Origin: Pelagomonas calceolata
Lineage: Eukaryota
NCBI GenBank assembly: GCA_918797485.1
Contig: CAKKNE010000005.1
Coordinates: forward strand, 4,712,001-4,776,000
DNA: 64,000 nt
Reading direction: 5' to 3'
The notes under the pieces: model-generated
Told to the model about the DNA's origin: nothing
Database searches by the model: none
Seen by the model: only the letters and a program-made list of their open reading frames with translations
Translations under genes and position numbers: made by a program
In this document: positions 10,864-61,055 of the stretch, piece after piece
How the letters are laid out: every line of letters starts with the position of its first letter
How positions within the stretch are numbered: position 1 is the stretch's first letter

Positions 10864-11800
10864 ATGACGACGCACGCGAACATCTACCCGACGTTCACCA
10901 TCAAGGACTTCGCCAAGGCGCACGGGCAGCGTCCGCAAAGCCGGGGGCAGCGTGCGCGCCAACGCATGCCGCCATGTGCACATGGGAGCTTGGTCTAGTG
11001 GTAGGATACGCGCTTCGGGAGCGCGAGGTCGCTGGGTTCGATTCCCGCAGTTCCCCTATCGCAGTCGCTGGACGCGCGCACCCCCAACGCAGGCCAAGCC
11101 GCTGCTCGACAAGTGCGTCGAGGACACGAGGGCCGAGGCGGGCTGCCTCTACTACGGCTGGACGATCAAGGAGGACGGCTCGAAGCTCTTCTGCCGGGAG
11201 ACGTACGTCGACGGCGCGGCCGCGGGCCACCACCTCTCGTGCGTCGCCAAGTCCGGCGCGCTCGGGGAGGCCCTCGAGAAGGGCTACATCGCGCTCGACA
11301 ACATCGACCTGATGGGCACGGAATCCGACATCGCCGACGCGAAGAAGGTGCCCGAGTTCGAGGGCTTCGGCCTCGGCTCCTGGACGGTCTGGGACTCGTT
11401 CCAGAACTTCAAGCAGACGTCGGCCGAGGAGGCCTCCACCGCCGACTTCTTCACGATCCAGCCCACGTTTACCATCAAGGACCTGAAGCAGGCGGAACCG
11501 TTCATGAAGAAGTGCGTCGACCTCACGAGGAACGAGAAGGGCTGCATGTACTACGGCTGGACGATCCAGGGCGACAAGCTCTTCTGCCGCGAGGCCTACG
11601 TCGACGCCGCCGCCGTCCAGGCCCACCTCGACAACATCGTGCCGTCCGTCGGCGAGATGCTCGATTCGGGCGCCGCGTCGCTGGACAAGATCGAGTTCCA
11701 CGGCCCGAAGGAGGGCTGGCCGACGTTCAAGAAGAGCGCCGACGCGCTCGGCGCCATCTACTGGGACCGCTACGCCAGCTTCTCCAAGTTCAAGATGTGA
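10864..11800 (+). CDS. tandem ABM-like (dimeric alpha-beta barrel) domain protein; exons 10864-10917 and 11093-11800 (253 aa)
   Basis: Two repeats PTFTIKD...CV..TR.E.GC.YYGWTI...KLFCRE.YVD.AA...HL; GC-AG intron 10918-11092 gives exact repeat alignment. Confidence 0.75.
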
Positions 11801-55506: not shown

Positions 55507-57306
55507 CTAGAACTCGGGCGTGTAGAGGAACCGCAGGATCCAGGGCATGGACAGCTGCGTCGCCGTGAGGAAGAAGGGCCCTATCAAAGGGATCGTCATC
55601 ATGAGGTCGAAGTCCACGAGCAGGTCCGACCCGAGCTGCGCGAAGCCCTGCACGATGGACGTCCTAAACACTCTCTTGCGCGAGTACGATCCCAAAGCGC
55701 CCGCCGTCTGCTTCGTGTGCTGCACCGTCGCGAGCTCCTCGGCTAGGCGGTAGCCGTCCTCGGTCGACTGGCAGCCGCCCTGGCCGAGGTTGGGCATCAT
55801 CGGGTGCGCCGCGTCCCCGCAGATCGCGACCCTACCAGAAGCCCAGGGCGCGAGCCACCGCTTCGGGTCCCACGTCGCTAAGAGAGGTGCGCCGTCGTAG
55901 AGATCTCTCCTCTTAATATCCTCCTCGGGCGTCGCGTCGACGAGCTCCAGCGCGAAGCCGTCCCAGACCTTGCCGTCCTGGTCGCACGCGTAGGCGTCGC
56001 CGTTCGCGAACTCTCTCCTCAAACGATCGAGCTTGGGCGTCGGGTTCTCCGGCGTCGGCTCCGGGTCGACACCGCCCGCGTCTTCCCTTATCAACGCGAA
56101 CCACTGCTGCCGCTCGCCGCCGCCGTCGGTGCTCACAAAATACTTCTTGTCGCCTAGCAGGATCTGGTAGGAGACTTCTTCGATGTTCGACGCCTTGTGG
56201 TTCGCGAGCGCCGCGTAGCACGTGAAGCCCGAGTACCTCCGCAACGCCTTCTGGGCCACGCGCACCGTGTCGCGCGCCATCTTGCGCGCCTCGGCCTCGT
56301 CCAAGGCGCCGCCCGCCGCGCCCGACGCGGCGTCGCCGCCCGCGCCTTCATCTAACCCGTGCATGATCTTGCGCACGGACGACCAGACGCCGTCCGCGCC
56401 GACCAGCACGTCCCCGAACGCCTCGGTGCCGTCTTCCAGCGTGACCTTGACGCAGCCGCCCCGGTCCTCGTAGTCCACGACGCGCGACTTGATTCGAACT
56501 GTATCGGCGGGGAAGCCGTGCTTGACGAAGATCTGCTGGATCACCGGTCTATCTACAACGACCGTGGGAGGCAGCTCGGCCTCGAGCGCCGGGCCTAATG
56601 TATCAAAACGCACGAGCCAGTCGCCCTTGTCGTACAAACCCGCGAGCTTGTTGCCCCGCTTGTAGCCGATCTTCAGGCCAGATACCCTATCGGCGGTGCA
56701 CGTGCCCGCTTGCACGAGATCCTCATAAATCTGGGGGTTGATGCGCTGGATGGCCCGCAGCGCATTACTCTGAATCTGGATGGGCCCGCCGTAGGGCGCG
56801 TAGGACGACGCCTGCTCGAAGAGGGCCACCTTCATGCCCTTGGAGTGGCACGCGGCGGCCGTCACGAGGCCGGCCAAACCCCCGCCTGCCACCAACACGC
56901 GCAGCGGCTCGTCCGTCGTGAGGTCCCTCTCAGTACCCTCGCCGGCGGGCGGCGGCGAGCGCCACCAGGCCGTCTGATCGGCGTCGCCCGTGAGCATGCC
57001 GCGCAACGCGGCGGCGTCGGCCGCCGCCGTCCGCGCGCGCGCTCTTACTTCTTCGACGCGCTCCGGCGACTCTTCTACCCTCTTCGGCGCCGTCGGCAGC
57101 GCGAAGATGCGCTTGGCCGAGTCGGGCGTGTTGACCTTGTTTTCTTTCGGCGCCTCGCCCTCGGCGAGCCACGGAATATCTAACTTCGCGTCCCGCAGCA
57201 AATCGGCGACGGCGTTCGTGGGCGCGAGGCGCTGGTGCGGCGTAGTGGGTGCGACGAGTGCGTGCGCGGTGGCCGCGAGCCCGATAATGAGTGGGGTGCT
57301 TGGCAT
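55507..57306 (-). CDS. ZEP: zeaxanthin epoxidase
   Basis: [65 protein letters not shown]. Confidence 0.93.
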
Positions 57307-57564
57307 GGCTGCAAGCTTTTTATTTACAAGGTTGCTTGCGGAACTGGTGGTCTGCTGCAGGAATGTGTACTGTACTGATGTATTGGTACAACCAAAACGC
57401 GTCGACGAGGCGTTAGCCGCGTCTTGCCACGACCACGATCTTGGGCAAGCTAAAGCTGTGATACAAGTGCCACCCTGCGCGCAGCTGCGGTTTTTGCGAA
57501 GACAACTCGTCGCGCCGTCAAGGACGTGCTGTAGACAAGAAGGAAAGAGGGAATTATCCGGGGG

Positions 57565-57584
57565 CTAGCGGCCATAGACACTAG
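57565..57584 (+). promoter_or_regulatory. recurrent promoter motif (variant)
   Basis: CTAGCGgccatAGACACTAG between ZEP and glutaredoxin. Confidence 0.55.
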
Positions 57585-57708
57585 CAAAGCTGAGAGGCAT
57601 CGTCTGGGGGCTGCGGAGCGGGCGTGGGAGGCCCTTTCGCGAGCGTTAGGCTGGTCCACGAGTCGCCCAGGACCGCTGCGCGACGCTCCAGGACCGCTGC
57701 TCAGTACG

Positions 57709-58254
57709 ATGCCGCGCCTCGCGGTGGCGCTGGCGCTCTGCGCCGCAGCGTCTGCCTTCCAGGCGCCTGTGTCGCAGCCCGCCCGCAGCAGCCTCGCGCG
57801 GCACGCCGAGGACCCGACGAAGGTCTGGTACGCCGACCTCGCGAACGGCGTGCAGAACCTCCTGCAGAACTCGCCGCTCAACGAGGGAAAAAAGGCCGTC
57901 GTGAAGATGATGGCTGGTGGTTACGATGTCGCCGCGACGAACGAGAAACTGGACGAGCTCATCGCGAACCCGGTCGTTATGCTGTCGTTCACGAAATGAC
58001 CCTTCTGCATCAAGGCGAAGCAGCTGCTCGACGCCAAGGGCGCCAAGTACGTCGCCTACGAGCTCGACCAGGCCGACGACGGGCCAGCCATCCGCGCGGA
58101 GATGTGCGACCGTATTGATCGTACCTCAGTCCCGGCCATCTGGATCGACGGCGTCTACGCCGGCGGCTGCAACGACGGCGGGCTGGGGGGCGTCGTGAAG
58201 CTCGACCAGCAGGGCCGGCTCGACGAGCTGCTCAAGGCGGCCGGCGCCGTCTGA
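57709..58254 (+). CDS. selenocysteine-containing glutaredoxin (UPFC), plastid-targeted; TGA 57997-57999 = Sec97
   Basis: ASA-FQAP presequence; FTK-TGA-PFCIKAK; frame continues through RTSVPAIWIDG..AGGCND to stop 58252-58254. Confidence 0.9.
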
Positions 58255-58264
58255 AGGAATCCCG

Positions 58265-58334
58265 CGCGGCGGCGATGACGCGCGCCCGCTCTCTTTTCTC
58301 CGAGCGGGCGCGCCGACGATATTATGTAGCCGCG
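58265..58334 (+). promoter_or_regulatory. SECIS-like element of glutaredoxin
   Basis: ATGAc + 12-bp perfect stem gcgcgcccgctc/gagcgggcgcgc + cGA; lower helix cgcggc/gccgcg; apical loop lacks AA. Confidence 0.75.
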
Positions 58335-58562
58335 TAAGGACGCCTGTGTTTAGTACGCTCCTGCTGTTCTTCACTCCCCCTCGCCCATTACTAGTGGTTG
58401 CAAACGAAGAGACTTGACGGCCTCAGAGGACCCGGATCGTGCGGGACACATGCCTGCTTCTGCCTCACAAGCTCCTCCTCTTGGGGCGCTGTAAAATCGA
58501 TTCGCGGGACGCTGTGAGGTCGCGGAGCGACGAGGCGTTCGCCCGGTCGCGGCACCCACACG

Positions 58563-59730
58563 ATGCAGCCCCAGCAGCCGCCGGGCTTCTCTCCAGAACT
58601 TGGTGGAGAGGGAGAGTCCAATGCTGTCGTCATGGGAACAGTCGTCGAGGGAACAGTCGTGCAGCCGCCCGCCCAATCCGTAACAATCGTGCAGCCGGCC
58701 GCCCAACCCGTGGTCCTCGCCCCGCAAGATGTACGTGCGCGCGGCCTCGCCGTCGTGCAGCCGCAGCCGGTGTACGGGCAGCCCCAGCCCCAGCCGCAGC
58801 CCGTCGTCGTGCCCCAGCAGCCCGGGACGTACGCGCAGCCGCCGTACGGGCAGCCCCAGGGCCAGCCGCAGCCCGTCGTCGTGCCCCAGCAACCCGGGAC
58901 GTACGCGCAGCCGCCGTACGGGCAGCCCCAGGGCCAGCCGCAGCAACCCGGGACGTACTACGCGCAGCCGCCGTACGGGCAGCCCCAGGGCCAGCCCCAG
59001 CAGCCCGGGACGTACTACGCGCAGCCGCCGCCCGTGGCGTCCAAGGTGATGCCGATGCCCATGAACGGCCAGATGATGATGCCGCAGATGATGATGCCGC
59101 AGGTGGTACGGGCCCCCGGCCAGTGGAACGGCGGCCAGCCGTGCGGGTGTTGCGACCCGCCGGGCGGCTGCCAGCTCTGCTGCGCCACGTGGTGGTGCCC
59201 GTGCGCGCCGGTAGCGCAGCTCCACGACCGGGTCGTGAGGCCGGGGAGTCACGGGGAGGTCTTCGCGGTCCTCTGCATTGCGCCGGCCCGCGCGGAAATC
59301 ATCTTAAACGGATGAACGCCGACACACCGGTTGCTTTGCACGCAGGCGACGGTTTTCAAGACGGTCGTGAGCTTGCTTTTGACGGCGGCTGGGGTGAACA
59401 TCGACGGTATGCTGCAGCGTGGAATCGTCTTCGCGTCGAGGGCGTGGGGGGCTGACGCGGTCGATCGTCCGCACAGGCCTGCTGAACATGCTACTCGCTT
59501 TCCTCTATTTGCTTTACATGAACCAAATAAGAGAGGCCATCGTCAAGCGGGACGGGATCGCCGACCGCGGGCTTATCTGCTGTGGCGACCCTTGCTGCGA
59601 CAACTACTGGTGTTGGCCCTGTCTGACTTGCTTCTTCATCCGGCACGAGCTCAACAGGAGCGGCGAGACCTACGACGACTGTTGCGGGCCCAGCTGGTCC
59701 CGCGGCGGCGGGCGGGCGCACGTCGTCTGA
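58563..59730 (+). CDS. PLAC8-family Cys-rich membrane protein with P/Q/Y-rich repeats; exons 58563-59279, 59346-59406, 59477-59730
   Basis: W.GG.CGCC.......C..WWCPC...AQL; IR..I..R.GI...CC..YWC.PC; two short introns restore frame. Confidence 0.75.
59288..59345 (+). mobile_element. highly decayed introner relic; GC-AG intron 59280-59345
   Basis: ccgcgcggaaatc vs TIR ctgtgtggaaatc; ends gacacaccggttgctttgcacgcag vs gacacactgggttgatttccacacag; TSD gcgccggc/gcgacggt. Confidence 0.7.
59415..59476 (-). mobile_element. highly decayed introner relic; GT-AG intron 59407-59476
   Basis: cagcgtggaatc...cgcgtcgagggcgtgg...gatcgtccgcacag; TSD gtatgctg/gcctgctg. Confidence 0.65.
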
Positions 59731-59788
59731 ATGAATCCCGCGTCGGCGCGCCGGGCACTTGTCACGAACCCGCCGCCGCCCCCAATGT

Positions 59789-59842
59789 GAATCCCCATTG
59801 AATCCCCACAACTCCGAATCCCCATTGAATCCCCACAACTCC
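59789..59842. repeat. perfect 27-bp tandem duplication
   Basis: gaatccccattgaatccccacaactcc x2 (gaatcccca x4). Confidence 0.85.
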
Positions 59843-59896
59843 GTGGTCTGGATGAATAAACACTGTTAATTTGGTCGGGTAGGACCGGGGCGCTCG

Positions 59897-59988
59897 CGCG
59901 CGCGCGACAACCGGCGGCGGCAGGGTCGGGCCGCCCGCGAAAGGTTCCGCGGACGGCCGTCACGGCGCCGCGGCCGGGTCGCGCGCGC
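59897..59988 (-). promoter_or_regulatory. SECIS-like element of peroxiredoxin
   Basis: Minus strand: GTGAc ggccgtccgcg gAAccttt cgcgggcggcc cGA, flanked by long lower helix (gcgcgcgcgac/gtcgcgcgcgc, ccggc/gccgg). Confidence 0.8.
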
Positions 59989-60000
59989 ACAATACGCCAT

Positions 60001-60456
60001 CTAGAGCTCCGCGAGGAGCGCGGCGGGCCCCTCTCGCGCGTCGAACGGGTCGATGCACTTGACAACGGTGCCGTCGGCGCCGACGACGACCGTCACGCGC
60101 GCGGACTTGTCGCAGGGGTCCGAGCCGTCCTTCGCCGGCTTGCAGACGCCGAACGCCTTCGTCATGGACTTGTCGACGTCGGAGAGCAACGGAAACGCGA
60201 AGTCGAACTTCTCGTGGAAGGCCTTGTTCGCGTCGACGGCGTCGCAGCTCACGCCGTAGAGGTCGTAGCCCTTGGCTTTAAATTGGTCGCAGAGCGCCGT
60301 GAACGCCTGCCCCTCCGCGGTTCACCCACCCGTGTCCGCCTTAGGGTAGAACCACAAACAGTAGGCCGAGCCCGCGAGCGAGTCCGACGAGACCGCGGCG
60401 CCCGTGTGCGCCGTCACAGCGAACTTGGGCACCTGGGCTCCGGCCTTCAAGGACAT
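60001..60456 (-). CDS. selenocysteine-containing peroxiredoxin (PrxQ/BCP family); TGA 60324-60322 = Sec45 at the peroxidatic position
   Basis: MSLKAGAQVPKF...WFYPKADTGG-TGA-TAEGQAF...GVSCD...FPLLSD...R.T.VVG.DG.V, one frame across the TGA. Confidence 0.9.
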
Positions 60457-60600
60457 GGCTCGGGCGCCGGCGCACAACGAGATTGTTGCCACACGCAGCA
60501 TTCAGCCGACGTGTCCTGTAGGCGCTCGCGACTACTAATTGCAGCCGCGTTGCCCTCTCGCGCTCCACTGAGAGCGAGACTCTGTTGTGAGACGCCAGCT

Positions 60601-60623
60601 CTAGTGTCTTTACAGGCCGCTAG
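60601..60623 (-). promoter_or_regulatory. recurrent promoter motif (variant)
   Basis: CTAGTGTCTTTACaggcCGCTAG between Prx and PCNA. Confidence 0.6.
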
Positions 60624-61055
60624 GTGACTGATTTGTCCTTCGAGCACTCGCGGTTGGCCACCTGTCTCAGCGGCAAGGCAGAAGAGGCAATTTTTTCATG
60701 ATTCTCGCTAGATAAGAGCACTAGCTCTCCCATTTTTGAAAATAGCAGCGCCCATTCACAGCCTTATAACTCCGTCGCTGTGCGCTTCCTGAGTCCACCG
60801 AGTCACTATGAGCTCACCACAACATATATGAGGGCGCGCGGCAACGAAAATGCTGCGCGCGGTGACCGCGGGCGCGATTTTTGGCCGAGGCGCCCCCTGG
60901 AACACGCGCTGCAGCGACGCGGCGCAGGGCCGCGCCGCGCGCCGCCTCGCGCCACGCTCTCGCTGCCGCGCCGCCAGCGCGCCACCCCACACACGCAAAA
61001 CGCCGCCGCCGCGGACGCGCCGATCACGTTCGAACGCGCGCAGGCGAAAAGCACC

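Follow-up and report, generated by a model that had tools for sequence, protein, structure and literature searches.

The window analysed here, a 64-kb stretch of DNA, carries a glutaredoxin gene interrupted by an in-frame TGA codon, together with a divergent zeaxanthin epoxidase (ZEP)-like gene and a second gene that likely encodes a selenoprotein (Table 1). The glutaredoxin frame begins at ATG 57709, and its open reading frame is halted by TGA 57997-57999 after 96 aa. With this TGA taken as selenocysteine (U), the frame reads U97-P-F-C, has 84 sense codons beyond the TGA and ends at TGA 58252-58254. This read-through frame bears out the initial annotation, which had placed the TGA at the first Cys of a CPFC motif and noted TSVP and GGCND motifs in the continuing frame. 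The gene's own stop codon is TGA here and in loci L001-L005, and mostly TAA or TAG in distant orthologues.

Table 1. Features of the glutaredoxin locus and its surroundings (positions within the window)
Feature	Position	Strand	Basis or detail
ZEP-like FAD monooxygenase, divergent, 599 aa	55507..57306	-	Homologue labels
Glutaredoxin precursor CDS, 181 aa, intronless, in-frame TGA (likely Sec97)	57709..58254	+	Second TGA is the likely stop
Predicted signal peptide, aa 1-16, cleavage between ASA and F	57709..57756	+	Crude h-region and +1 F test; model helix 5-16
Predicted transit peptide, aa 17-34, begins FQAP, Ser/Ala/Arg-rich	57757..57810	+	Criteria of PMC4329603
N-terminal extension, helical, conserved and specific to the family, aa 35-73 (helices 42-52, 56-69)	57811..57927	+	Alignment, model
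Active site U-P-F-C, with TGA 57997-57999 as codon of the N-terminal nucleophile	57997..58008	+	Alignment to homologues and PDB glutaredoxins
TSVP (cis-Pro, glutathione site) and GGCND, 3' of the TGA	58123..58176	+	TSVP aa 139-142, GGCND aa 152-156
SECIS-like element: helix I, A-UGAC/CGAC core, 12-bp helix II, 10-nt loop	58264..58335	+	Folding, core search
Poly(A) site of glutaredoxin mRNA	58352	+	A-tail loose ends in run X22 and in one X17 contig
Peroxiredoxin SECIS-like element: G-UGAC, stem of about 13 bp, AA at 13 nt, CGAC	59925..59963	-	Core search
AhpC/PrxQ-like likely selenoprotein, TGG-U-T, TGA 60324-60322	60001..60456	-	Profile search, read-through

The TGA is real in the DNA and is retained in the mRNA. 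Three stranded poly(A) RNA runs from one sample give a depth of 152-271 over the bin that includes this codon, and no alternative letter reaches 3% there, so neither the TGC nor the TGT that a sequencing error would have hidden appears in these reads. The same reads, which reveal two introns in the next gene, contain no splice joint within the glutaredoxin gene and hence no intron removing the TGA. DNA contigs of set X1 also match the TGA, and these contigs may be the source of the window itself. Environmental contigs have no variant at 57997-57999 among the best 40 of 111 variant rows, which adds weak support.

The read-through protein scores 54.6 bits against the Pfam Glutaredoxin profile PF00462 (cut-off 22.9) and reaches none of the NCBIfam equivalog cut-offs. 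Its AlphaFold model (mean pLDDT 84) superposes on buckwheat Grx 5kqa with an rmsd of 0.9 A over 109 columns (Foldseek E 1e-9), and UPFC, TSVP and GGCND align with the corresponding motifs of PDB glutaredoxins. By predicted fold and motifs, the product is a class I dithiol glutaredoxin, which would have the glutathione-dependent oxidoreductase activity of that class. Three residues before the nucleophile, where Lys is usual, it has Phe94, so that its glutathione binding may differ.

Relatives of the gene are informative about codon 97. In a set of 105 homologues, 50 proteins terminate precisely before residue 97, and the remaining ones have WPFC (17), CPFC (21), CPYC (12) or something else (five) at the site, with Cys at position 97 in 33 of the 105. 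For two of the 17 WPFC proteins the corresponding locus was identified, and in both the codon is TGA. The five others include four named gene models (Aureococcus, Chrysophaeum, Seminavis and Attheya) without the stretch containing residue 97; a comparison of these protein models indicates that the active site is deleted, with borders that differ in each. At this site, the frame of the Aureococcus-like locus L007 is continuous and contains TGA. Furthermore, the conservation of TGA or Cys on which the initial annotation depended is found in 42 metagenome loci: 27 have TGA at the codon, 12 have TGT or TGC and three do not cover it, so that the 39 loci covering it always have TGA or Cys.

The frame 3' of the TGA is under purifying selection: pN/pS pooled over six close loci is 0.05 after the TGA, compared with 0.074 before it. 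GC3 downstream of the TGA is 0.93. The nearest named homologues are from Aureococcus and Chrysophaeum, which points to a pelagophyte-like alga. In a quick version of the tree, in which 42 of the 68 inner branches are open and no direction of Sec/Cys change can be read, TGA and Cys forms are interleaved, with 10 changes, at least three of them forced by starred branches. One TGA form, L035, sits inside a well-supported clade whose other members have Cys.

The initial annotation had also described a hairpin 20 nt past the stop, with an ATGA/GA core, a perfect 12-bp stem and a pyrimidine loop, and folding confirms it. It is made up of A58275, UGAC (58276-58279), a perfect 12-bp stem (58280-58291 with 58302-58313) and CGAC (58314-58317), and its fold z-score is about -3. 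The 10-nt loop, UCUUUUCUCC, consists of pyrimidines and has no AA/CC at canonical spacing. The core lies 275 nt from the putative Sec UGA and 20 nt from the terminal UGA. The hairpin is upstream of the poly(A) site and is therefore contained in the polyadenylated mRNA. Environmental contigs show a one-base loop deletion at 58294 and a G-C to G-U change at 58311, in one contig each. A search of the window for RUGA/GA cores under 10/10 paired bases gives only two sites, where 30 shuffles lead one to expect 0.067, and both sites are located 3' of genes with a TGA at a catalytic Cys.

Several canonical SECIS features are present, namely the RUGA/GA core, a 12-bp helix (range 11-16), the 3' UTR location and the 275 nt from the UGA. 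The hairpin lacks the canonical unpaired AA/CC, located 10-13 nt above the core and 15-39 nt from the 3' GA, a spacing that a passage of PMC2375036 gives as the SECISearch rule; in addition, its 3' core CGAC does not match the consensus KGAW. Judged on its sequence features, it is a putative SECIS variant, not a canonical type I or II element. An Rfam scan of 57000-61000 returned no SECIS and three chance matches, a result that is uninformative for a variant element. In the passages concerned, Chapple et al. (PMC2647825) describe UGA/GA as the only invariable part of SECIS elements, and Latreche et al. (PMC2761289) call the AAA/G motif essential in human ones. A passage of PMC3753652 sets the minimal working UGA-SECIS distance in HEK293 cells at 51-111 nt; because 20 nt is below this minimum, UGA could have two readings in the same mRNA.

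The hairpin was surveyed in 43 entries (42 loci and the window), nine of which were dropped (short UTR or missing codon), leaving 34 in 26 groups. A hairpin with core and helix is found in 14 of the 17 TGA groups vs none of the nine Cys groups (p=7e-5), and under relaxed rules that allow a longer apex in 16/17 vs 2/9 (p=4e-4), p-values that overstate the case since the groups are related and an initial inspection preceded the choice of criteria. The relaxed search gave a weak match in L015 and missed L036. With registers chosen by hand, 11 of the 17 TGA-group elements have GAAUGAC as their 5' side; the 3' side is mostly YGAN (KGAW in four), and 28-148 nt lie above the core. AA/CC occurs at 10-13 nt in six of these elements; the full SECISearch spacing rule is followed in three, and the motif is unpaired in one. 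The missing AA pointed out in the initial annotation is thus confirmed here but is not peculiar to this gene: with 14 of the 17 elements failing the classic pattern, the absence of apical AA is a trait of the family.

Two other signals were set aside. The element is identical over 66 nt in L002-L004, which was rejected as a SECIS-specific constraint since in L002 and L003 the identity continues beyond the poly(A) site, to about 160 nt. Helix II pairing of 85%, vs 36-43% when the register is slid, was discounted as circular, the registers having been picked by pairing. As side observations, candidate elements with a long apex have 148 nt (L035, about 805-965) or 78 nt (L012, UTR +109) between the core halves, and tandem pairs of similar SECIS-like copies lie behind one gene in L021 (UTR +142/+379) and L025 (UTR +185/+372).

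The glutaredoxin is predicted to enter the complex plastid. Presequences were evaluated with a crude script that looks for a hydrophobic stretch, a small residue at -1 and F/W/Y/L at +1; by this measure, the protein has a plastid-type presequence, as do 44 of 55 non-redundant homologues (Phe being at +1 in 42), and several of the misses look N-terminally truncated. TGA and Cys forms alike carry it. By the same crude test, the presequence matches the ASAFAP rule for complex-plastid presequences, as set out in passages of PMC4329603. The predicted transit peptide has no acidic residue before E34, and the 5' UTR contains no upstream ATG. Hence, the ASA-FQAP presequence proposed in the initial annotation is there, and the import that it would direct is a prediction.

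The next gene downstream, at 58563-59730 (+), encodes a Gln/Pro-repeat protein with a Cys-rich C-terminus, which we take to be PLAC8-like. It has two introns, the first with a GC donor (59280-59345). A short direct repeat (59788-59845) lies between the 3' end of this gene and that of the convergent AhpC/PrxQ-like peroxiredoxin gene. The latter, 1.7 kb from the glutaredoxin gene, is expressed and has no intron; an AhpC-TSA domain and a TGGUT motif are both present, and its TGA sits at the peroxidatic Cys. The two genes likely form a small cluster of probable selenoprotein genes, and the organism seems to carry both AA-less and AA-bearing elements with the same UGAC/CGAC core. The TGGUT motif of the AhpC_a family is already published in passages of PMC7539508, and the text of section 11 of that paper names no GRX-AhpC pair. 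About 21 of 64 peroxiredoxin homologues (P0136-P0155 and similar) match up to TGG and then continue with unrelated sequence, as if these relatives had an intron right at the Sec codon, which the gene in the window would lack. A relaxed read-through filter recovered both selenoprotein genes, both of which a stricter filter missed, and also flagged TGAs at 59313 (in an intron), 59251 and 24524, which have no catalytic context. Elsewhere in the window, a tRNA-Pro(CGG) at 10984-11056 (+), the only tRNA found by a search of the 64 kb, overlaps the beginning of an ORF of 272 aa called at 10982.

Taken together, a TGA that persists in the reads, selection downstream of it and hairpins that track TGA and not Cys support the UGA-recoded selenoprotein of the initial annotation, and residue 97 is almost certainly selenocysteine. 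The whole explanation, a plastid-bound UPFC glutaredoxin whose Sec is inserted by means of an adenine-less SECIS in the 3' UTR, appears highly probable. Sec insertion through SBP2 and a kink-turn is established biochemistry, as are the glutaredoxin steps. Here, SBP2 would bind the UGAC/CGAC kink-turn of the hairpin, and eEFSec with Sec-tRNA would decode UGA 57997, from which the core is 275 nt away in the 3' direction; at a distance of only 20 nt, the terminal UGA would be too near and would terminate translation. Sec insertion would take place on ER-bound cytosolic ribosomes, the signal peptide leading the protein into the chloroplast ER and the transit peptide with Phe at +1 directing it further, to the stroma. 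In this compartment, the selenolate would attack glutathionylated or disulfide-bonded proteins and would be recycled through Cys100 and glutathione. When selenium is absent, the product would be a 96-aa stub without the active site.

One other explanation is a selenoprotein that acts in the ER, in the periplastid compartment or along the secretory route instead of the stroma. The transit peptide is indeed short (18 aa) with a net charge of 0 over 20 aa, the specificity of ASAFind is only 0.82 for calls of low confidence, and chloroplast transit peptides are absent from the selenoproteins of Ostreococcus (PMC8834552). However, Phe is kept at +1 in 42 of the 55 non-redundant homologues, whose presequences are otherwise unalignable, and the C-terminus has no ER-retention tail, which makes a non-stromal site unlikely. 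It is very unlikely that the UGA is read as Cys, Trp or another residue, by leaky read-through or a changed code, with an incidental hairpin. The W that 17 database proteins show at the site is a gene-caller artefact where it can be checked (2/2 TGA), and although the hairpin lacks AA, such hairpins accompany TGA orthologues and not Cys ones. Furthermore, TGA is otherwise an ordinary stop in this genome, ending the glutaredoxin gene, the next gene and 8 of 27 long coding-like frames; therefore, a changed code is rejected. A sequencing error, a pseudogene or an intron removing the TGA is largely refuted and has only the slightest probability left. Formally, 89 in-frame GT/GC..AG pairs could excise the TGA, and the four public gene models mentioned above skip its region. 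These models, however, lose the active site, each with different borders; raw RNA reads contain neither variant nor joint, TGA is found in 27 of the 39 loci covering the codon, and the downstream frame is under purifying selection.

An addition to the main reading would make the glutaredoxin a dedicated redox partner of the ZEP-like enzyme, expressed from a bidirectional promoter. Many homologues of this neighbour, 70-77% identical to it, are labelled zeaxanthin epoxidase. The ZEP-like protein shares 70-75% identity with proteins of diatoms and haptophytes, which may mark the ZEP1 (fucoxanthin) clade. The start codons of the two genes are 402 bp apart, with 5' ends near 57433 and 57551-57667 in the RNA reads, both proteins are plastid-type, and the genes are directly adjacent in five close loci. 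In L007, a ZEP-like gene is again head-to-head, at 2.2 kb, but two ORFs separate it from the glutaredoxin gene; six other loci with 3 kb of upstream sequence have no ZEP match, and at least four other divergent pairs with gaps of 322-415 bp exist in the window. A dedicated partnership is thus improbable. The ZEP-like gene does adjoin, as the initial annotation had it, but the functional link implied by a divergent pairing is unsupported: the arrangement looks like pelagophyte microsynteny or ordinary head-to-head packing.

A Sec-glutaredoxin in the complex plastid would link plastid thiol redox control to dissolved selenium in marine phytoplankton that are abundant. Moreover, AA-less and AA-bearing elements with the same core in one window offer a natural test of the apical adenines. 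Searches based on AA/CC would miss elements such as the glutaredoxin one, and gene callers shorten the protein or splice its active site out (50 truncated and four skipped among 105 homologues); therefore, algal selenoproteomes and plastid redox inventories are probably undercounted. A broader proposal, an ochrophyte SECIS class of pelagophytes and diatoms reduced to a kink-turn core and helix, with a freely variable apex, and serving a conserved and mostly unannotated family of plastid selenoglutaredoxins, is possible, although we doubt somewhat that it is both true and unpublished. If true, it would mean that a thiol switch dependent on selenium operates in the complex plastid of important marine primary producers. 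No plastid targeting of the glutaredoxin family and no AA-less ochrophyte SECIS were found in the literature, to which supplements may add.

The element resembles eukaryotic type I SECIS elements in its A-UGA/GA core, its helix I, its 12-bp helix II opened by G-C, its 3' UTR location and its spacing of more than 111 nt. In contrast, it has no AA/CC 10-13 nt above the core and has CGAC instead of KGAW as 3' core, and the region above the core varies from 28 to 148 nt among orthologues. Similarly, the predicted protein shares with class I dithiol glutaredoxins (buckwheat 5kqa, poplar GrxC1 2e7p, chloroplast GrxS12 3fz9 and GrxC5 3rhb) the fold (rmsd about 1 A), a CPFC-type site, the cis-Pro motif and the GG-C-x-D motif. 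It differs from them by a likely Sec nucleophile, by Phe at -3 and by TSVP in place of TVP; moreover, five residues are inserted behind GGCND, and the N-terminal part has two additional helices.

The UGAC/CGAC core without AA recurs in the Aureococcus-like locus L007, and Aureococcus belongs to the same algal class. The abstract of the 2013 work of Gobler and colleagues on the Aureococcus anophagefferens selenoproteome reportedly mentions a 'unique' Sec insertion sequence, which may already cover the AA-less form. The Chlamydomonas Sec-type GPx1 and GPx2, listed as putative chloroplast or organellar proteins in a passage of PMC3095285, are likewise nuclear-encoded selenoenzymes predicted to be plastid-bound; they are peroxidases of a primary plastid, whereas here a glutaredoxin is concerned and the plastid has four membranes. 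Sec-GRX is known from selenoprotein-rich SAR algae and haptophytes, according to passages of Jiang et al. 2020 (PMC7539508), which also describe a Sec-to-Cys exchange within the GRX clade (a Fragilariopsis pair), in line with the interleaved TGA and Cys forms of our quick tree. The word 'chloroplast' occurs 0 times in the main text of that paper, and its passages on these proteins make no statement on apical-loop variation. Hence, algal Sec-glutaredoxins are already known, and the form predicted to be plastid-bound, with a putative adenine-less SECIS, would be an addition to them.
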